Shown here: one piece after another, positions 9,051 through 28,881 of the stretch
Position numbering within the stretch: the stretch's first letter is position 1
How the letters are laid out: each line of letters begins with the position of its first letter
DNA from: Candidatus Helarchaeota archaeon
GTDB taxonomy: Archaea > Asgardarchaeota > Lokiarchaeia > Helarchaeales > RDOG01
Assembly (NCBI GenBank): GCA_029838215.1
Contig: JALGVI010000028.1
Span: 1 to 33,134, forward strand
Direction: 5' to 3'
DNA length: 33,134 bases
Notes under the pieces: model-generated
Databases searched by the model: none
Told to the model about the DNA's origin: nothing
What the model saw: the letters and a program-made list of their open reading frames with translations, nothing else
Position numbers and translations under genes: made by a program

Positions 9051-11603
9051 GTGGGACACAAAGCCCGAACCCCGATGATGATTCAATATTACAAGATAAA
9101 ACGAGAGCATGCGGGATATTTGTTATTGTATCGAATGGGCGACTTTTACGAGACGTTTGATGAAGATGCAGAAACTATTTCGAATGCATTGAATATTGCT
9201 TTGACAAAACGAACGGGGCATGGTGAAAAGTTAGCAGGGATACCTTACCATGCACTTGATAAGTACTTACCCATCTTGATCAAGCAAGGGTACAAGGTGG
9301 CAATTGCCGAGCAAGAGCTCGATCGAGGGAAAAAGGTTTTTGAAAAGATAAATAACACAAAAGTAGTGAAGCGGAAAGTCGTCAGGATCGTAACGGCGGG
9401 CACGCTTTTGGAATCAAGTTTACTCGATGATAAGAAAAATAATTTCCTTGCTGCGATTTTTCGAGAAAAGAATAATATTGGAGTTTCATACGTAGATATT
9501 TCGACAGGAGAATTTTTTCTGACGGAATTTAAGGGTGTTAATTCCAGAATTGCTCTCGTAAGTTTTTTGGCACAATTAGAACCTGCAGAGTTGATCATGC
9601 CTCCGAGCTTGTTTGAGAATAAAGATTTTTACGATTCACTCAAGATCAACCTCAACAGGACGTTGCTTGAGACCTTCGATGAGTTCCGGTTTATTCATGA
9701 TAATGCACGTGATGACTTGTGCGCTCATTTTGGAACGACCTCCCTTGAGGGATTTGGAATAGAGCAGTATCGATTTGGAATAACGGCGGCAGGAGCCATC
9801 TTGCAGTATTTAAAAGAGACTCAAAAGAGTCAATTATCGAACATCACGTCATTGCGATTACATGTTAATAAAGATTATATGATGATTGATGCGGCGACTT
9901 TAAAGAATCTTGAGATAATGCAAAACATCATTGATGGGTCTTCAAGGGGCACGCTTCTCGAGATTTTTGATCATGCCATCACGCCGATGGGATCGCGACT
10001 CTTGCGGCGTTGGCTTCAACAACCTTTAACAGTTGTTGAAAGGATCGAACACCGTTTATCAGCTGTTGAAGAATTATTTAATAACATGTTGCTCAGAGAA
10101 GACATTAGGGAGATATTAAAGCAAGTACATGATATTGAGCGGTTGATAAGCAGGGTAAGCTATGGTAGTGCAAATGCGCGTGATTTAGTTGCGCTTAAAA
10201 ATTCCTTAAAAATCGTGCCACAAATTAAAAAGTTACTGAAGCCAGATGCCTCAATGTTGAAAGAAATTGTCAGTGAGCTTCAAGAGTTACCTGAGATTGT
10301 AGATCTCATTGAGCGAATGATCGTTGATAATCCGCCATTAACCTTGCACGATGGAGGATTAATCAAGCCGGGCAATCATGAGGAATTGGACGAGCTTAGA
10401 GAAATAAGTACAAATACCAAGAAAATCATGACGAAATTGGAGGATGAAGAAAAAAGAAAGACTGGCATTAAGAATTTGAAGATTCGATACAATCGCGTGT
10501 TTGGGTACTATATTGAAGTCACGAATTCCTACAAACATCTCGTTCCAAAAGATCGATACATCCGAAAGCAAACTCTTGCTAATGCCGAACGTTATTTCAC
10601 ATCAGAGTTGAAGGAGTTTGAAGCCAAAATATTGAGTGCCGATGAAAAGATCAAGGCGTTGGAACATGAGTTATTCCTTCAGACTTTGAATCGTATCAAG
10701 GAAAAAATCGTTCACGTTCAGAAAATCGCCGGTGGATTGGCCAAGTTAGACGTCCTGAGTACATTTGCCGAGGTTGCAAAGCATAATGATTACGTGCGTC
10801 CCGACATCAATGACAAAGAACAAATATTAATCAAGGGTGGTCGACATCCCGTCGTGGAGCACCTCGTGTCGACAGAGCGTTTCATTCCTAATGACACTTT
10901 ATTGGAACCGAAGGCAAACCAGGTGATCCTTTTAACCGGGCCAAATATGGCAGGAAAGAGTACATACATTCGACAAGTGGCGTTGATTACCTTGCTTGCC
11001 CACATTGGTAGCTTTATTCCGGCAAGAAAAGCATCCATATGTATCGTAGATAGGATTTTTTCAAGGATTGGAGCGTTTGATGATTTAACAAAGCAGCGAA
11101 GCACTTTTATGGTTGAAATGAATGAAACTGCGAATATAATTAATAATGCTTCACGTAATAGTCTCGTGATATTAGATGAATTAGGGCGTGGAACCTCGAC
11201 ATTTGATGGATTGAGCATTGCTTGGTCGGTAATTGAACACTTGCACGATAAAATTAAATGCAAGACTCTTTTTGCCACGCATTACCATCAATTAATCGAG
11301 TTGGAGAATTATTTACCGCGAGTGAAGAATTATCACATTCAAATTCGGGAAATAGGTGATGACATCTTCTTTCTTCGCAAGATTGAGCGGGGTGGTTCCG
11401 ATAAAAGTTTTGGAATTCACGTTGCGAAACTGGCAGGATTACCAGCGCGTGTCATTCAGCGTGCAAAAGCCATTTTAGAAAAATTGGAAGATGGCGATCC
11501 TGTTTCCACGCACATTCCTTTAAAAGTACCATCGCAAAAGATAAAAAGGGAAGAGAAAAAAGGTAGAAAGAAGCGAGTTCTTCAACAAACGTTATTTGAA
11601 TAG
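9051..11603 (+). CDS. mutS: DNA mismatch repair protein MutS (MutS1)
   Basis: TPMMIQYYKIK, YRMGDFYETF (G-x-F-Y-E), Walker A TGPNMAGKSTY, STFMVEM, ILDELGRGTSTFDG, FATHY, SFGIHVAKLAG. Confidence 0.97.
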   Translation: MGHKARTPMMIQYYKIKREHAGYLLLYRMGDFYETFDEDAETISNALNIALTKRTGHGEKLAGIPYHALDKYLPILIKQGYKVAIAEQELDRGKKVFEKINNTKVVKRKVVRIVTAGTLLESSLLDDKKNNFLAAIFREKNNIGVSYVDISTGEFFLTEFKGVNSRIALVSFLAQLEPAELIMPPSLFENKDFYDSLKINLNRTLLETFDEFRFIHDNARDDLCAHFGTTSLEGFGIEQYRFGITAAGAILQYLKETQKSQLSNITSLRLHVNKDYMMIDAATLKNLEIMQNIIDGSSRGTLLEIFDHAITPMGSRLLRRWLQQPLTVVERIEHRLSAVEELFNNMLLREDIREILKQVHDIERLISRVSYGSANARDLVALKNSLKIVPQIKKLLKPDASMLKEIVSELQELPEIVDLIERMIVDNPPLTLHDGGLIKPGNHEELDELREISTNTKKIMTKLEDEEKRKTGIKNLKIRYNRVFGYYIEVTNSYKHLVPKDRYIRKQTLANAERYFTSELKEFEAKILSADEKIKALEHELFLQTLNRIKEKIVHVQKIAGGLAKLDVLSTFAEVAKHNDYVRPDINDKEQILIKGGRHPVVEHLVSTERFIPNDTLLEPKANQVILLTGPNMAGKSTYIRQVALITLLAHIGSFIPARKASICIVDRIFSRIGAFDDLTKQRSTFMVEMNETANIINNASRNSLVILDELGRGTSTFDGLSIAWSVIEHLHDKIKCKTLFATHYHQLIELENYLPRVKNYHIQIREIGDDIFFLRKIERGGSDKSFGIHVAKLAGLPARVIQRAKAILEKLEDGDPVSTHIPLKVPSQKIKREEKKGRKKRVLQQTLFE

Positions 11604-11650
11604 AATTACAAAAAAGAAAGAAATTAAACGTGTTAGATGCGTGAGAAAAA

Positions 11651-11791
11651 ATGAACGGCGATAGCAAATGCGTTTTATTTGAAACAGCTCTAAATGCTTG
11701 TGGAGTCACGGGAAAGCCTTGTGACAAAAAAACCGAGGAAGAAATCAAGAATTGTGAAGTTAAGAAGGGCATGTATGAGGAACTGGTATGA
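11651..11791 (+). CDS. Small 46-aa four-Cys protein between mutS and mutL
   Basis: Manual translation MNGDSKCVLFETALNACGVTGKPCDKKTEEEIKNCEVKKGMYEELV*. Fills the mutS-mutL gap in the same orientation; GTGAG upstream. Below the track's size cutoff. Confidence 0.55.
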   Translation: MNGDSKCVLFETALNACGVTGKPCDKKTEEEIKNCEVKKGMYEELV

Positions 11792-22774: not shown

Positions 22775-23716
22775 TCAAGGAAGGAGTCCTTCTTTCTCGG
22801 CTAAATGCTTTAGGATTTTATTCTTTTTCTCCGGATCGATCTTATCCCAGCTTCCATTTTGGAACGTGATCTTGTCATTTTCAATGGTGAAGCTGCATAT
22901 TTGCCCCACGGGACCTTCGACTTTAATCAACCGGACATCATGTGGTTTTTTCGTTTGACCAACAAAAATCTCATCAATTTCAGTTAATATCGAAGTGATT
23001 ATTAGACCGGTTCGCATTTCACCCATGGTTTTTTTATCGAGCATTGATTTTCCTTTTGACACGGGTTGGGTGATCGGTTCAAGTGAGAGAGGAGGTTTCA
23101 TTGGAGCAGCAGAGGTTGATGTCGAAGGACCTTGTTGTGAATACTTTGGAATTGCTGTAGCGGTACTGGATTCAGGAGGCGGTGCAGGTCGAAATTCACC
23201 GATTATCTGTTCAATTTTTCTGGTGTCATCCCCTGCAGATGGGGCCGCAATGGCGGCTTTTACTAAATTGGCACGTTGTTCAGTAGTCAAGCCATATTTA
23301 ATGTTTGAAGACCCAAGTTCGGCGGCATCATATTGTGCTAAAATATTTTCGATTTTATAAGTGTGTGGCGTGTTTACCAAGCGCACGATCGAATCAAACC
23401 GCTGTTTCTGTTCAGGATCACTATCAAGCGCATCTCCCCGAATATCATATACGTCTTCTAAATTACGACCAATCACGGAGTTTGCAATTTCGTGTCCATA
23501 TGCCTTTAGACTCCTAGCAGCACGCATGGACCCACGACGTTGAACTAAACCAGTCGATTTACCCATCCAGACCCAAAGCTTGTTATTGACTTCATCAATA
23601 ATGGCAACTATATTATCGTCCCGTAGGTTTTCTATCGTGAAGGGCACCCTATGGGACATGCCTTCTTCAATTTGAAGCATGATGGCGAATTTCGCATCTG
23701 TTCCCAATTTGTTCAT
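22775..23716 (-). CDS. Gelsolin-domain protein with Pro-rich linker and uncharacterised C-terminal domain
   Basis: N-terminal DDNIVAIIDEVNNKLWVWMGKSTGLVQRRGSMRAARSL fits the gelsolin-repeat core (D-x-hhh-D...hW-hW-x-G-K...helix). Confidence 0.72.
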   Translation of the reverse strand: MNKLGTDAKFAIMLQIEEGMSHRVPFTIENLRDDNIVAIIDEVNNKLWVWMGKSTGLVQRRGSMRAARSLKAYGHEIANSVIGRNLEDVYDIRGDALDSDPEQKQRFDSIVRLVNTPHTYKIENILAQYDAAELGSSNIKYGLTTEQRANLVKAAIAAPSAGDDTRKIEQIIGEFRPAPPPESSTATAIPKYSQQGPSTSTSAAPMKPPLSLEPITQPVSKGKSMLDKKTMGEMRTGLIITSILTEIDEIFVGQTKKPHDVRLIKVEGPVGQICSFTIENDKITFQNGSWDKIDPEKKNKILKHLAEKEGLLP

Positions 23717-23914: not shown

Positions 23915-23966
23915 GGGATGAGAAAATGGTTTTTCTAAGAGAAAATCGATCTCAAGTAAATTGGAG

Positions 23967-24326
23967 ATGAATATATTGGACCAAGCAATCAATGCAATTT
24001 ACGGCGAGGAACCGAGCATAACGGCATTAGCAATAGTGGTAAATGACCAGATATATTGGCAAACCGAAAATTGGGATTTGACCGCAGACTTACCCGGAAT
24101 ATTATCCACGTGGACTGGTGGTGGCGGTGGGTCTATTAACATCAGTGGAGTAAAGTACATAGTGCTATCTGCAGGTCAGGATCACATCTCAGCAACGAAC
24201 ATACAGGGGCAAGGTCATATTGTTGGATGTCCTTGCAAGTCCGGAAAAATCATCGCATATGTGAGTCCAGACGGAGATAATCGCGGAGCTTTGATGGCTC
24301 TTCAAAAACATGCTCACGAAATTTAA
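23967..24326 (+). CDS. Asgard-type profilin
   Basis: 119 aa with QTENW, GVKY, TNIQGQGHI, AYVSP and RGALMALQ, matching the motif order of Lokiarchaeota profilins. Confidence 0.88.
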   Translation: MNILDQAINAIYGEEPSITALAIVVNDQIYWQTENWDLTADLPGILSTWTGGGGGSINISGVKYIVLSAGQDHISATNIQGQGHIVGCPCKSGKIIAYVSPDGDNRGALMALQKHAHEI

Positions 24327-24396
24327 GTTTCCTTTTTGTTTTTTTTATTTCTTTTCACATCTCAAGATTTATTTTACGTGATACCATCAGCTACGT

Positions 24397-24477
24397 GCAG
24401 CTGGCATGTGATTCGCGACCCCTACGGAACTTGATTTTCAAGTGATGACGGAGATCTTGAGTGATGATGCCAGTTGC
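24397..24477 (+). ncRNA. Candidate box C/D guide sRNA (sRNA-3)
   Basis: 10-bp terminal stem GCAGCTGGCA/TGCCAGTTGC, bulge TGT, C-like GTGATTC (24408-24414), 16-nt guide, D' TTGA (24431-24434), C' GTGATGA (24442-24448), 15-nt guide, D-like ATGA (24464-24467). Confidence 0.78.
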
Positions 24478-24513
24478 CATTAATTGCGAGTAAAAAGAGA
24501 TTTTAGGTTGAAA

Positions 24514-25542
24514 TTGATGGCAGATCGGTATGCGTTTGACCTTCCTAAGGAATTTATTGCACAGAAACCATTAGAAAAACGAGATCAATCGAATCTAATG
24601 GAATGGAAGGAAGGTAAAATCATGCATCGCAAGTTTTATCAATTGAAGGATTATTTTCAGCGAAATGACGTTCTCGTTTTGAATGATTCTCGCGTGTTGT
24701 CAAACCTGCTTGAAGGAAGGAAGGTTTCGGGGGGAAGAATCCGTCTATTATGCCTGCAAGAAGTCGATGATGCAAGATGGGAATGCTTGGTAATGGGCAA
24801 GAGAATTCGAGAGGGATTGAAATTTATCATTGGAGACGGATCTCTTGAGGGGACCTTGGAAAAGCAGATACTTGAAGGGAGATTTATCGTTCAATTTGAT
24901 GGACAAATTGGTTTTCGAAAAGCACTTGAAGAATTTGGTTCCGTCCCCTTACCGGAATACATCGAGGATATAAGTCCATCCTTTGATTTTGAGCGATATC
25001 AGACATGTTTTGGCATGAAGGAAGGTTCGATAGCGGCACCTACGGCAGGGTTGCATTTTTCCAAGACACTGCTGGAAGACTTGAAATCACGAGATGTTAA
25101 AATTCGGTTCATAACGCTTCACATCAGTATAGGAACGATTCTAAGAATAAAAACAGGAGATCTTTCAAGTCATAAGATGTATCCGGAATTTGTCCATGTT
25201 TCTTCTTCTGTAGCGGACGTGATTAATCAGGCAAGGGCGGATGGTAGGCGAATTTTCGTGGTTGGAACCACCTGTTTGAAAGCACTCGAATGTGCCGCAG
25301 ATGACGCGGGAATTCTCCATTCATTTGAGGGAGATACAGATTTATTTATTTATCCGGGATACCGGTTCAAATTTCAGCCTGACGCGTTCATTACGAATTT
25401 TCACTTGCCGAAATCAGCCCCATTATTAATGACCGTTGCGTTAATAGGATGGGAAAGAATTCAAGAGATGTACGAAGAAGCCAAGCGGAAAAAATATAGA
25501 TTTTATAGTTTCGGAGATGCAATGATCTACTTTCGGACTTGA
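24514..25542 (+). CDS. queA: S-adenosylmethionine:tRNA ribosyltransferase-isomerase QueA
   Basis: FDLPKEFIAQKP, VLVLNDSRV, PLPEYI, RYQT, GSIAAPTAGLHF, VGTT, TNFHLPKS, YRFYSFGDAM. Start uncertain (TTG 24484, TTG 24514 or ATG 24517). Confidence 0.95.
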   Translation: MMADRYAFDLPKEFIAQKPLEKRDQSNLMEWKEGKIMHRKFYQLKDYFQRNDVLVLNDSRVLSNLLEGRKVSGGRIRLLCLQEVDDARWECLVMGKRIREGLKFIIGDGSLEGTLEKQILEGRFIVQFDGQIGFRKALEEFGSVPLPEYIEDISPSFDFERYQTCFGMKEGSIAAPTAGLHFSKTLLEDLKSRDVKIRFITLHISIGTILRIKTGDLSSHKMYPEFVHVSSSVADVINQARADGRRIFVVGTTCLKALECAADDAGILHSFEGDTDLFIYPGYRFKFQPDAFITNFHLPKSAPLLMTVALIGWERIQEMYEEAKRKKYRFYSFGDAMIYFRT

Positions 25543-26093
25543 AGCCGTCTCGGATTTTTCTGGTCTTTGAGAGAAAAAACGCATCCACAATAAGTTTGAC
25601 GATAGATTTCATATTTCCTGCAAAATTCGACGCTTTCCTTAAAACCATTTTTTTTCTTGAAATCATGAGGAAGAAATAAGATGTCAGAGTCTTGAGTCAA
25701 TAATTCACCGATTTCAGTTATTTTTGAAAAGTTTTTGTGCGGACTTATTGTAAGCGTTGTTGTAACGTGATCGAATCCATATTTTTTAGCGTATTCTATC
25801 GTTTTTAATAACCGATAGCGAATACATTTTGCACATCTTACTCCCCCTTCCGGCTCACTTTCGTATCCATGCATTTTTTTAAGCCAATCTTTGGGATCGT
25901 AAACATCTTCAACGAGATGAATCTCAAGCAATCGTGCCACGTGCCTTGCGTGTTCTAATCGTTTCAGATATTCTGCTTCAGGATGAATATTGGAATTTGA
26001 AAAAAATACCGTCACTTCATGATCCGGTTGAAGGCGCTTGATTGGAACGGACATGCACGGTCCACAACATGCGTGAAGAAGGAGTTTTTTCAG
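25527..26093 (-). CDS. queH: Epoxyqueuosine reductase QueH (DUF208), probable CTG start
   Basis: NSNIHP..EY.KR, EPEGGVRCAKC..YRL, TTTLTISPHK, YRQTYCGC. The conserved N-terminal LLLHACCGPC lies upstream of the track's ATG 26054. Confidence 0.9.
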   Translation of the reverse strand: MKKLLLHACCGPCMSVPIKRLQPDHEVTVFFSNSNIHPEAEYLKRLEHARHVARLLEIHLVEDVYDPKDWLKKMHGYESEPEGGVRCAKCIRYRLLKTIEYAKKYGFDHVTTTLTISPHKNFSKITEIGELLTQDSDILFLPHDFKKKNGFKESVEFCRKYEIYRQTYCGCVFSLKDQKNPRRLQVRK

Positions 26094-27487
26094 TGCTTTT
26101 CACCAGCTATTTGAGCACTTGAAATTCTTAGACTTGGCACGTGAAATCGACCTAAATCCCGTACATCATTCCCAATTTCTTCTATTTTATTAAAAAAATC
26201 AATCATGTTTATTCCCATCATTGCTTGCTTTATGGGATGTTCAATCGATCCTTTTAATATTCGGAAACCGATCATGATGAGACCCGAGAAGTCCCCGGTG
26301 GTGATATTTGGGCTATCACCGGTTGTATACAGCAGGATTCCATCATCACATTCATGAATAAAATCATCTAGAGTTTTTGAGCTTCTTGGAAGAACTCGAA
26401 GATTATTCGGTCCAATATAAGGAGTGTAACCGTAATTTGAACGAATTGCATTCCCAGTACTTGAGATTCCATCTTTGCCCGCAGTATAAGAATCATGAAG
26501 ATATGTTTTTAAGATGCCATTTTCTAAAATCTGACGGGATATTTTTGGAGTTCCCTCACCATCAAAGGATGACGTGCCGAGTGCCGCCATGCCGTTACGA
26601 ACGTATCGTCCATCGTCAATAACATTTAAAAGCTTGCATCCTACTTGCTCATTTAGTTTTCCCGTCAAGAAAGAGCGGTGATATTGAACCGATTCAGCAT
26701 TAATTGCGGAGCTAATTGCAGGTCGAAGAATTGAATTGAGGGCAAATGGATGAAAAATAATGGGATATTGACCAGTTTCGATCCGTTGAGATCCCAGTGT
26801 TTCAATCGCTAGTTTTGCAGCTTTTTTTCCGATTTTTACCGGATCAAGAATTTTGAAGAAACGGCCGTGCTGAAAATCATAACCGGAGCTCATGTCAGTT
26901 CCACGTTTTACCGTGACATCAGCAGAAATACCTACAGATGTTGCACCCTCATCCAAATCAAATGCTTCCACGCCCAATGAATTTAGAAGAAAGCACTTCG
27001 TTTCAGAAGTATAAAAAGACGCATTTACCGAGTATACTTCGTTAGAATAGCCAGCAGCTTCCTTTTCGATTTCTAGAACCACTTTAATCGCTTCTGTCAC
27101 GTCGATGGCTGCAAGAGTGGAATCGTGACGACCGGGAATGACTTGGTAAGACCCAGCAGTAGGGAGGCTCTTGAAATTAGGGTCGGGAGTCCCACTTTTT
27201 GCCAAGTGAACCAATTGCAGTACCATTTTAGATAACGTATCCCATTTCAAGTTTGTAACAAAGCCAAAGCCAATGCATCCGTCTTTTATTATCCGTAACC
27301 CACAACCATAATCAATGATTTCTTGAGAGGATTTCAAGGAGTTCTTTTCGATTTCTGCTATTAGACGACGTGATGATGAAATGAATACTTCGACTTGATC
27401 CACGTCGTGTTTCAATGCTTCATTCATGAGTTTTTTACCGAGTGTCTCCCAAGAAGAAGGATCCGGATAATCCCGAGAGTTCATCAT
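26090..27487 (-). CDS. pmbA: PmbA/TldE-family protein
   Basis: GCGLRII, DDGRY...FDGEGTP, ILKTYLHD, STGNA, GDFS. ATG 27487 (GGAGG RBS, ATGA overlap with tldD stop) preferred over GTG 27508. Confidence 0.9.
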   Translation of the reverse strand: MMNSRDYPDPSSWETLGKKLMNEALKHDVDQVEVFISSSRRLIAEIEKNSLKSSQEIIDYGCGLRIIKDGCIGFGFVTNLKWDTLSKMVLQLVHLAKSGTPDPNFKSLPTAGSYQVIPGRHDSTLAAIDVTEAIKVVLEIEKEAAGYSNEVYSVNASFYTSETKCFLLNSLGVEAFDLDEGATSVGISADVTVKRGTDMSSGYDFQHGRFFKILDPVKIGKKAAKLAIETLGSQRIETGQYPIIFHPFALNSILRPAISSAINAESVQYHRSFLTGKLNEQVGCKLLNVIDDGRYVRNGMAALGTSSFDGEGTPKISRQILENGILKTYLHDSYTAGKDGISSTGNAIRSNYGYTPYIGPNNLRVLPRSSKTLDDFIHECDDGILLYTTGDSPNITTGDFSGLIMIGFRILKGSIEHPIKQAMMGINMIDFFNKIEEIGNDVRDLGRFHVPSLRISSAQIAGEKH

Positions 27488-28881
27488 TCCAATCCTCCCC
27501 ACGTACACTTTTCAAGGTAAATATAGGGGCTTCCGTCGGTGACTGGCATGGATTGACCACTTTTCCCACAAGTTCCGGGTGAAAATTCAATTTCTTTACT
27601 TAAACCAATTATGTCGTGAAGTGTTTCAAGCGTGATTCCACTAAGAGTACAATCTCTCATCAAAGTAGTGAGTTCTCCATTTTTAATTTCATAACTTTCA
27701 CCCGCCTTGAAGGCAAAAGTTCCCTTTGAAGGATCTACATATCCATATTGCCAGTCTCTTGCAAATATTCCATTTTTTACTTCCGCTAACATTTCTTCAA
27801 AGGTCCAATTGCCCGGTTCCAAGAACGTGTTGCTCATGCGTATGATTGGGATGCTTTGATATCCCATTGCGCGGCAGTTTCCTGGTGCCTGCATGATGTT
27901 CATTCGGGATGCGGTTTCTAGACTGTGAAGATAGCCCTTCAGGATGCCTTTTTCGACAAGAATTTGACGGTTTGCAGGCGTTCCTTCAGAATCAAAGTGA
28001 AAAGAACCGTAGAGGGGCATTTTAGTTGCATCATCGATGATCGTGACTTTATCATTAGCCACAGATTCGCCAACTTTTCCTTCAAGGATTGATGCACCAT
28101 TTAGCACCGAATCGGCTTCGCAACAATGTCCGAAGGCTTCATGAACAAATACACCACCTAAAGTTGGACTTAAAATTGTTGGGAAGACTCCGCTCTTTGG
28201 AGCTCTTGCTTGAAGAAGTAAGATGGCTTTTTCAGCCGCATCATGTCCGGCATTAAGAGCTTTTTCAGTATTCATGATCTCCCATCCTCCAACGTGTCCT
28301 ATCGATTCTCTTCCTTTTTGTCGAACGCCACCATCAGCGGCATAATTTACCACGTTAAAATGCAAGTAACTGTTCTCTTGTTTAATATAGGAACCAAATG
28401 AATTGCACGTGATGACTTTTTCTTTCAAATCAGAATAGGAAGTATTTCGATTCACGATACGATCGTCTACGGCTAACGAATCTTTATCAATTTGCAAGAC
28501 ATATTTTATTTTCTCTTCAATTGAAATGTCGTCTAAGTTAATTCTCGTGGGAATTGTGACGGATGTTTTTATTGCCGGGATGTCGATCAAGTGAAATTTG
28601 ATTTTTGCGTGTTTTTCACCGAATCGAGCGAGTTTTACTGCAGAAATTATTGCTGATTCAATGCTTTCTTTTTCTAAATTATTGGTAGTACTGAAGCCAT
28701 AAGAACCGTTGACGAACGCCCGGATGCATCCTCCGCTTTCGATGAAGCTCGTGATTTCACGAGTTTGTCCATCAATGCATTTTATAGTCGTACCACGGGA
28801 ATGCTGTATTCGAATATCAATGAATTCCACGGATTCTCGTGCGATTTTTTTTTCAATTAATGAAGGTAATAGATCTTCCAT
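27484..28881 (-). CDS. tldD: TldD-family metalloprotease
   Basis: HEAFGHCCEAD metal motif, FDSEGTP, GILKGYLHS, IRMSNT, GTCGKSGQSMPVTDGSP. Confidence 0.93.
   Translation of the reverse strand: MEDLLPSLIEKKIARESVEFIDIRIQHSRGTTIKCIDGQTREITSFIESGGCIRAFVNGSYGFSTTNNLEKESIESAIISAVKLARFGEKHAKIKFHLIDIPAIKTSVTIPTRINLDDISIEEKIKYVLQIDKDSLAVDDRIVNRNTSYSDLKEKVITCNSFGSYIKQENSYLHFNVVNYAADGGVRQKGRESIGHVGGWEIMNTEKALNAGHDAAEKAILLLQARAPKSGVFPTILSPTLGGVFVHEAFGHCCEADSVLNGASILEGKVGESVANDKVTIIDDATKMPLYGSFHFDSEGTPANRQILVEKGILKGYLHSLETASRMNIMQAPGNCRAMGYQSIPIIRMSNTFLEPGNWTFEEMLAEVKNGIFARDWQYGYVDPSKGTFAFKAGESYEIKNGELTTLMRDCTLSGITLETLHDIIGLSKEIEFSPGTCGKSGQSMPVTDGSPYIYLEKCTWGGLE

Follow-up and report, generated by a model that had tools for sequence, protein, structure and literature searches.

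Can an archaeon make queuosine? Queuosine has been treated as a bacterial innovation (PMC8879553), and a paper of 2026 states that it is absent from Archaea (PMC13433404). The stretch of DNA analysed here, referred to below as the window, covers 33,134 nt (contig JALGVI010000028.1, positions 1–33,134, assembly GCA_029838215.1) from a Candidatus Helarchaeota archaeon of the order Helarchaeales, and carries homologues of two bacterial genes for queuosine synthesis, queA and queH. It is probable that these genes encode the last two steps of a bacterial-type queuosine pathway within a complete de novo route to queuosine at tRNA position 34 (Q34); in this reading the module was acquired once, queH is started from a CTG codon, and a small RNA (sRNA) candidate in front of queA is incidental to the pathway. 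The two genes are:

24517–25542, plus strand: queA, tRNA preQ1(34) S-adenosylmethionine ribosyltransferase-isomerase, 341 amino acids (aa) from ATG 24517, identified by Pfam, NCBIfam and alignment with PDB sequences.
25527–26093, minus strand: queH, epoxyqueuosine reductase, 188 codons from CTG 26093 or 175 aa from the first ATG at 26054, identified by Pfam PF02677.

An initial annotation, made from the letters of the sequence alone, had described an intact queA that converges with queH over a 16-nt overlap, and both statements are borne out: the queA frame is open to its end at 25542, and the overlap spans 25527–25542. QueA matches the Pfam family PF02547 (Queuosine_synth) at 5e-104 with 348 bits (cut-off 25) over profile positions 2–321 of 322, exceeds the cut-offs of the NCBIfam equivalogs NF001140 (362 bits; cut-off 324) and TIGR00113 (331 bits; cut-off 267), and is collinear from end to end with Bacillus subtilis QueA (PDB 1yy3; 3.8e-75, residues 3–338). 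The sequence blocks AAPTAGLHF, VGTT, ITNFHLPKS and YRFYSFGDAM are invariant across five Helarchaeales sequences. Three codons could start the frame (TTG 24484, TTG 24514 and ATG 24517), of which ATG 24517 is favoured, as both the alignment with relatives and a 341-aa gene call by the Joint Genome Institute (JGI) point there. QueH in its 175-aa form matches PF02677 (DUF208) at 1e-56 with 192 bits; read from CTG 26093, it reaches 220 bits over profile positions 1–174 of 175, within the 215–240 bits of its relatives, and this 188-codon reading aligns with Thermotoga maritima QueH (PDB 7lc5; 1.1e-29) at the CCxPC, RCxxC and YCGC motifs.

The same annotation had suggested that the lineage may synthesise Q34, and had named a G34-specific tRNA-guanine transglycosylase (TGT), queF and queCDE as the genes to look for elsewhere in the genome. 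A G34-type Tgt and a source of preQ1, whose absence that annotation would have taken as refuting its proposal, are both encoded on contig C134, in an operon in which queF lies 14 nt before tgt:

C134:5866–6414: queF, matching TIGR03139 (preQ1 synthase) with 164 bits (cut-off 86.9), its catalytic Cys falling within CPVTGQPD and its NADPH motif reading ESKSLKLY.
C134:6429–7562: tgt, 377 aa, lacking a PUA domain, matching TIGR00430 ('tRNA guanosine(34) transglycosylase') with 428 bits (cut-off 306.75).

The motifs of this QueF, going by the published signature, presumably set it apart from the archaeal QueF-like amidinotransferases. Its neighbour Tgt scores 124 bits against the archaeosine model, below the cut-off of 350, and contains the motifs TDSGGFQ, FDEC, GGLSVGE and GVGTPED together with a CxCxxC...H zinc site; its best PDB match is the T. 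maritima enzyme (2ash, 1.8e-95), and bacterial Tgt proteins (T. maritima, E. coli-type and Zymomonas mobilis) score 300–323 bits against it, versus 248–253 bits for eukaryotic QTRT1. These features identify the C134 protein as a predicted G34-specific enzyme of the preQ1 type. Among the genes for preQ0 synthesis, queC (211 bits; cut-off 150) is located on C134, 7 kb beyond queF-tgt, and scores, like Tgt and QueF, above its cut-off; the candidates for the other two score below theirs. The queD gene on C46, with 76.5 bits, falls just short of the equivalog cut-off of 89.25, and a radical S-adenosylmethionine (SAM) gene on C83 has QueE as four of its five best models, the fourth-ranked being NrdG2 (anaerobic ribonucleotide reductase activase), all below cut-off. 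The C83 gene is a probable QueE, sub-cut-off scores being expected for archaeal members of this family. The genome also encodes a TgtA of the G15 type on C112 (501 bits; cut-off 350). No match to the YhhQ/COG1738 preQ0/preQ1 transporter family (PF02592) was found in this 94.3%-complete genome. Genes for tRNA-Asp(GUC) and tRNA-Asn(GUU) were found with aragorn, which missed tRNA-His, tRNA-Tyr and tRNA-Leu(CAA), probably on account of multiple introns. A third protein of the TGT fold (on G000:C89, positions 958–1989 of locus L003; G000 is the window genome), 343 aa long, gives weak matches to TgtA/ArcS models (~40 bits).

At the genomic level this gene set, with QueF, Tgt, QueA and QueH, supports the suggestion that the lineage makes Q34, by a route encoded beside that of archaeosine in one genome; from the genes we infer the enzyme activities and the presence of queuosine in tRNA. 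QueC, QueD and the probable QueE would produce preQ0, a share of which would be inserted at G15 by TgtA for archaeosine, while QueF, an NADPH-dependent nitrile reductase, would reduce the other share to preQ1. The bacterial-type Tgt would then replace G34 by preQ1 in the tRNAs with GUN anticodons (Asp, Asn, His and Tyr), QueA would transfer an epoxycyclopentanediol from SAM onto preQ1-tRNA to give epoxyqueuosine, and QueH, an iron-sulfur enzyme, would convert epoxyqueuosine to queuosine.

How widely these genes are shared was surveyed in 400 genomes of the phylum, 7 of them from Helarchaeales (the window genome included) and 393 from elsewhere in Asgardarchaeota. A G34-type Tgt is encoded by all seven members of the order and by 1 of the 393 other genomes; QueA at full strength is found only in the order, in 5/7 genomes, and QueH in the same five. 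QueA fragments occur elsewhere in the survey. QueF exceeds the TIGR03139 cut-off in 7 of the 400 genomes, among them the window genome and G001, which make up one family of the order. In both, queF and tgt are adjacent, and it is only in this family that QueF, Tgt, QueA and QueH occur together. The convergent queA-queH pair is kept in G001, G005 and G006, and in G004 a single contig carries both genes at a distance of 7 kb; because G001 is a 10-contig assembly of 5.8 Mb, the pair is chromosomal. G002 and G003, the two members of the order lacking a match to QueA or QueH, are 93% and 82% complete, respectively, and the two genes may be missing from the assemblies only.

Homologues of individual steps turned up in other parts of the survey. 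Asgard family f15 contains a divergent QueA-like group in 6 of its 12 genomes (including G089, G090, G094, G095 and G096), which scores at most 191 bits against PF02547 and sits on a long branch; a G34-type Tgt is encoded by 0/12 genomes of the family at E≤1e-30, and the group may represent a QueA paralogue with a different role. The sole G34-type Tgt outside the order (G188:C91:800–1852), which is 42% identical to that of the window genome and lies near a contig end, could reflect contamination or an independent transfer; QueA was not found in the G188 genome. In family f20, where no Tgt of the G34 type turned up, QueF matches of 85.5–105 bits (TIGR03139) belong to frames of 250–274 aa, about twice the usual unimodular length.

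Phylogenies of QueA and QueH, which the initial annotation had proposed as a check, place both window proteins with their Helarchaeales counterparts. The QueA tree, a quick IQ-TREE run, comprised 88 rows (5 from the order, 3 from family f15 and 80 from a contig profile scan whose listed matches were bacteria and non-Asgard archaea only, the window genome and its near relatives possibly having been excluded). The order's QueA sequences form one clade (Shimodaira–Hasegawa-like approximate likelihood ratio test, SH-aLRT, 96) that branches as the taxonomy does, with support of 95 for the pair from family f1 and 99 for that from f3. Among the matches listed, the sister group consists of Methanoperedens, a Methanobacteriota metagenome-assembled genome (MAG) and an uncultured archaeon, followed by Thermoplasmata (support 84–90), and the order's QueA together with this archaeal sister group is nested among bacterial lineages; since similarity to the query decided which rows went in, a donor cannot be named. 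Resolution is poor in the QueH tree of 124 rows, in which the Asgard sequences cluster and the window copy is joined to a Helarchaeales protein with support of 98. The simplest reading of these data is a single acquisition before the order diversified, in which the module would have been gained horizontally at or before its base and inherited vertically since, with some losses.

The initial annotation had also called queH intact, and this holds for the reading frame more than for its beginning. The open reading frame is real, contains all Cys motifs and is interrupted by neither a stop codon nor a frameshift, but it has no canonical start codon: the coordinate 26093 given in that annotation corresponds to a CTG. 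The elements at the start of queH, and the genes upstream of it, are:

26091–26093, minus strand: CTG at the position of the ancestral queH ATG, overlapping the TGA stop of the upstream gene (26092–26090) as CTGA (4-nt overlap), located by frame reading.
26100–26104, minus strand: GGTGA, which resembles a Shine-Dalgarno motif and precedes the CTG by 6 nt, a putative ribosome-binding site, complementary to UCACC in the 16S 3' tail.
26090–27508, minus strand: pmbA/tldD-like metallopeptidase gene directly upstream of queH (Pfam PmbA_TldD first, second and third domains; JGI call of 465 aa).
27484–28881, minus strand: second pmbA/tldD-like gene (Pfam), the first of the pmbA-pmbA-queH string.

The 5' end of the queH frame reads TGA (26102–26100) AAA GCA CTG AAA AAA CTC CTT CTT CAC GCA TGT TGT GGA CCG TGC ATG. 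The first ATG, GTG or TTG in frame is thus ATG 26054, from which a 175-aa product would lack the N-terminal LLLHACCGPC; the metal-centre Cys motifs are all present in the frame, and a protein would contain the N-terminal CCxPC only by starting at CTG 26093, the one start-like codon ahead of that motif. Three genomes of the order have ATG at the codon that aligns with the CTG, followed by K-R-[IL]-L-L-H-V-C-C-G, and relatives read ATG-AAR-MGR... at this position; ATG is likewise found there in G004 and in the closest database homologue, a Helarchaeales protein starting MMKKLLIHACCGPC. The CTG is identical in three further JGI metagenome assemblies, and because all three contigs with the same locus have it, it is no assembly error: an ATG-to-CTG change has occurred at the queH start codon in this lineage. 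Among public reads, one DNA run, from a hydrothermal vent metagenome, contained 11% of the sequence words sampled, and no RNA run with the locus was listed; three runs yielded short pieces, mostly below 90% identity, and none over 26093.

Translation of queH most likely starts at CTG 26093 by stop-start coupling. This is favoured because the Cys motifs are kept, the 220 bits of the longer form are in line with the scores of its relatives, a GGTGA precedes the codon by 6 nt, and the CTG overlaps the preceding stop as CTGA. The 13 codons that separate the CTG from the first ATG preserve H, CC, P and C exactly. The 16S 3' end, ...GGATCACCTCC, is found on contig C124, and we infer from the complementarity that GGTGA acts as a ribosome-binding site, which would aid initiation coupled to the overlapping stop. 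The adjacent pmbA/tldD-like gene provides operon context for queH and is probably unrelated to it in function. In this species queH would have been relocated directly behind that gene, and its joining of the pmbA operon and the loss of its ATG may be one event.

The two tandem pmbA/tldD-like genes (26090–28881, minus strand) overlap one another, and queH comes next with an overlap of 4 nt; in relatives, an AT-rich upstream region belonging to queH alone takes the place of the pmbA operon. A PmbA-QueH fusion through stop-codon readthrough or frameshifting was considered and set aside, the pmbA stop being in a frame other than that of queH; a slippery site was not searched for. In G004, QueH (G004:C17:13256–13774) starts MKLLLDCCCGPC, where Asp replaces the conserved His and a third Cys directly adjoins the usual two.

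On the other side of the locus, queA is preceded by a structured element:

24397–24477, plus strand: C/D-box-like sRNA candidate ('sRNA-3') with an 11-bp terminal stem and the boxes C GUGAUUC, D' UUGA, C' GUGAUGA and D AUGA.

The initial annotation had placed this candidate just before queA and assigned it a wobble-methylation target; its position is confirmed, and the target stands as a reasonable hypothesis. The element stops 6 nt short of TTG 24484 and 39 nt short of ATG 24517, folds at −33.4 kcal/mol (z −4.9), and combines a canonical C' box with variant C, D and D' boxes, in which a U6-A1 combination could replace the usual G-C pair. Its spacers measure 16 nt (C to D') and 15 nt (C' to D), not ~12 nt; guide spacers of 12 nt are strongly conserved in characterised archaeal C/D sRNAs. 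No Rfam C/D family matched above threshold (best sR19, 14.9 bits versus a gathering threshold of 45, E 0.15), and neither a preQ1 riboswitch nor any other Rfam family was found in 24330–24530. The D guide, GAUCUUGAGU, can form 10 Watson-Crick base pairs with A31–C40 of tRNA-Leu(CAA), which puts D+5 on C34. The gene for this tRNA was located on G000:C115 at ~11440–11660 (minus strand) with a regular expression constrained on stem and intron length, and its anticodon arm reads CTGGA-CTCAAG-(38-nt intron)-A-TCCAG. The intron, inserted after G37, opens with AUC, the same triplet as the 3' exon; therefore the 10-nt guide site is identical before and after splicing. Of 5000 shuffled guides, 55 attained 10 bp of pairing within the 3.3-kb tRNA set. 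For the D' guide, pairing is limited to 9 bp in 16S helix 45, where the target would fall on the second base pair; against the tRNAs it matches no better than shuffled guides do.

The candidate shares with archaeal box C/D sRNAs a terminal stem, C/D and C'/D' box-like motifs and D+5 on a tRNA C34, and differs from them in its variant boxes, its 15–16-nt spacers, the lack of an Rfam match above threshold and the lack of an orthologue in relatives. Archaeal C/D guides for a wobble C34 are known for tRNA-Met and tRNA-Trp in Haloferax and Pyrococcus. BLAST of a 95-nt element against the seven genomes of the order, six of them from relatives, gave only short, chance-level matches, two of which were inspected and are not C/D sRNAs, and no such sRNA was seen upstream of queA in four related genomes. 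The element probably represents a separate gene whose RNA guides 2'-O-methylation of C34 in tRNA-Leu(CAA), and on this distribution its linkage to queA is best treated as incidental.

Whether the contig belongs to its host is a question to which the next gene upstream speaks directly:

23961–24326, plus strand: profilin gene of the Asgard type (PDB sequence matches 5zza, 5zzb and 5yed at 8e-14 to 5e-12; 7pbh, 'Profilin', at 4e-8).

Divergent from profilin is a gene for a 313-aa protein (22775–23716, minus strand) that belongs to no Pfam family; it has sub-threshold PDB matches to villin and adseverin (E 0.085–0.45, residues 26–69) and a stronger, chance-level match to the CRISPR protein Cmr2 (E 0.006).

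That the queuosine genes are bacterial contamination or the product of a chimeric join is an idea that the contamination estimate of this MAG (6.2%) and the typically bacterial nature of the gene families would invite, and that we consider scarcely credible. The profilin gene is situated 70 nt upstream of the sRNA candidate and less than 200 bp from queA, an ATP-dependent DNA ligase with all three domains of the archaeal/eukaryotic type (Pfam) is only 1.7 kb from queA, neighbouring tRNA genes bear multiple introns, and the G+C content is flat across the queA-queH locus at 0.39–0.42. The same gene arrangement was assembled independently in three other JGI metagenomes, on contigs of 45–75 kb with 1–2 single-nucleotide differences per 6.5 kb, although these sample one population and are evolutionarily not independent. 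Orthologues occur in four other genomes of the order with a phylogeny that tracks taxonomy, one of these genomes being the 10-contig G001, and the closest QueH homologues carry the NCBI names 'Candidatus Helarchaeales / Helarchaeota archaeon'. The bacterial chimera that the initial annotation had named as a possible undoing of its proposal is thus refuted by the QueA tree, the JGI assemblies and the profilin neighbour, and the contig is authentically Asgard. A more substantial alternative, which we still regard as unlikely, is that the genes belong to the archaeon and the pathway is decaying: the ATG-to-CTG change would have silenced queH or left the 175-aa product without three cluster-binding cysteines, and tRNA modification would halt at epoxyqueuosine (oQ), the outcome known from bacterial queG/queH mutants. 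No ATG, GTG or TTG lies between the in-frame TGA and CCxPC, every relative examined has ATG at the queH start, the gene callers of four assemblies gave only the 175-aa QueH, and the presence of Tgt without QueA and QueH in G002 and G003 indicates that late-step loss may occur in the order. Decay sits poorly, however, with 13 upstream codons and a remaining frame that are intact down to every conserved Cys, with a Pfam score equal to that of relatives, with a GGTGA at ideal spacing and a CTGA overlap that favours reinitiation, and with the inclusion of CTG among the start codons of NCBI table 11.

A functional pathway might conceivably serve a target other than G34 of tRNA, such as 7-deazaguanine in DNA or another tRNA position. 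DpdA, a member of the TGT family, modifies DNA in some bacteria and phages, and the genome holds the third, divergent TGT-fold gene on C89; yet Tgt, QueA and QueF all exceed equivalog cut-offs for tRNA-queuosine enzymes, Tgt retains the catalytic Asp residues, the zinc site and the preQ1 signature, and no dpd-type neighbours were seen, all of which makes another substrate very improbable. Only slightly more can be said for queA and the C/D-like sRNA as a co-transcribed, co-regulated unit for anticodon-wobble modification, a grouping that the initial annotation had proposed and that we do not uphold. The sRNA lies on the same strand, 6–39 nt before the possible queA starts, an AT-rich, TATA-like stretch is present only upstream of the sRNA, and the D guide pairs with the anticodon loop so as to address a wobble position; however, tRNA-Leu(CAA) is not a substrate for queuosine, the sRNA recurs neither in the six relatives searched nor in front of their queA genes in the four inspected, its Rfam C/D matches are all sub-threshold, and co-transcription would not in itself imply shared function.

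The preferred reading, a de novo Q34 route with a CTG-started queH and an incidental sRNA, has points to answer of its own. QueD and QueE are only probable assignments, and the search for preQ0 genes covered QueC, QueD and QueE. The genome is a MAG in which queF-tgt and queA-queH are carried by separate contigs. The QueA tree came from a quick search with rows chosen by similarity to the query, and its archaeal sister group is moderately supported. Finally, without an ATG, GTG or TTG at the ancestral start, queH may not be translated in full.

Compared with the bacterial QueF-Tgt-QueA-QueH pathway, as represented by T. maritima (2ash Tgt, 1vky QueA and 7lc5 QueH), the archaeon has the same four families at full length and with their catalytic motifs, among them the Cys/Val signature of preQ1-type Tgt, a unimodular QueF with its NADPH motif and the three Cys motifs of QueH. 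It differs in that the Asgard host also has TgtA, so that one preQ0 pool would feed two tRNA modifications, that the genes are split over two loci, and that queH has CTG where ATG would stand and is coupled to a pmbA/tldD gene. The salvage system of eukaryotes, QTRT1/QTRT2, belongs to the same TGT superfamily and acts on the same G34 of GUN tRNAs, but inserts queuine and does without QueA, QueF and QueH; the C134 Tgt scores higher to the bacterial enzymes. QTRT1 carries Val/Gly where bacterial Tgt has Cys/Val. If the Helarchaeales G34-type Tgt were the remnant of an Asgard-era queuosine system and the ancestor of QTRT1/QTRT2, eukaryotic queuosine decoding would derive from the archaeal host, not from bacteria. 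We give this idea very little credence: the enzyme is confined to one order, which is not the closest to eukaryotes, bears the bacterial preQ1 signature and favours bacterial Tgt in its scores. Because Tgt is of the bacterial preQ1 type and restricted to Helarchaeales, these genes by themselves would suggest no specific link to the eukaryotic system or to eukaryogenesis.

The initial annotation had allowed that similar genes might already be known, and they are, both from the QueH names in Helarchaeota MAGs at NCBI and from the survey of Castelle et al. 2021 (PMC8204110), which reported bacterial queuosine pathways (QueA, QueH-like and Tgt), whole or in part, from 34 genomes of archaea, including 12 from DPANN, with Methanosarcinales represented among the others. 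The main text of that paper makes no mention of Asgard archaea or Helarchaeota and describes only the last three steps, and part of its supplement includes Asgard genomes in the data set. The Helarchaeales genes resemble these cases as bacterial-type late queuosine genes in archaea, and Methanoperedens QueA falls in their sister group; they differ in their host, in being order-wide, and in the true QueF that completes the de novo route. No literature linking queuosine with Lokiarchaeota or Helarchaeota was found, the paper retrieved with Helarchae*/queu* being concerned with viral TGT genes. The kind of finding is therefore already known, and what is new is the Asgard host, the order-wide genes, the true QueF, the coexistence with TgtA and the CTG start of queH.

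Contrary to statements in the literature, gene sets like that of Helarchaeales predict queuosine in Archaea. The Q34 branch is order-wide and, in one family, complete from preQ0 to queuosine beside the archaeosine branch, so that one cell would run two tRNA-guanine transglycosylases, for G15 and G34, from a shared precursor pool; and queH offers a natural test case for CTG initiation by stop-start coupling in an archaeon.

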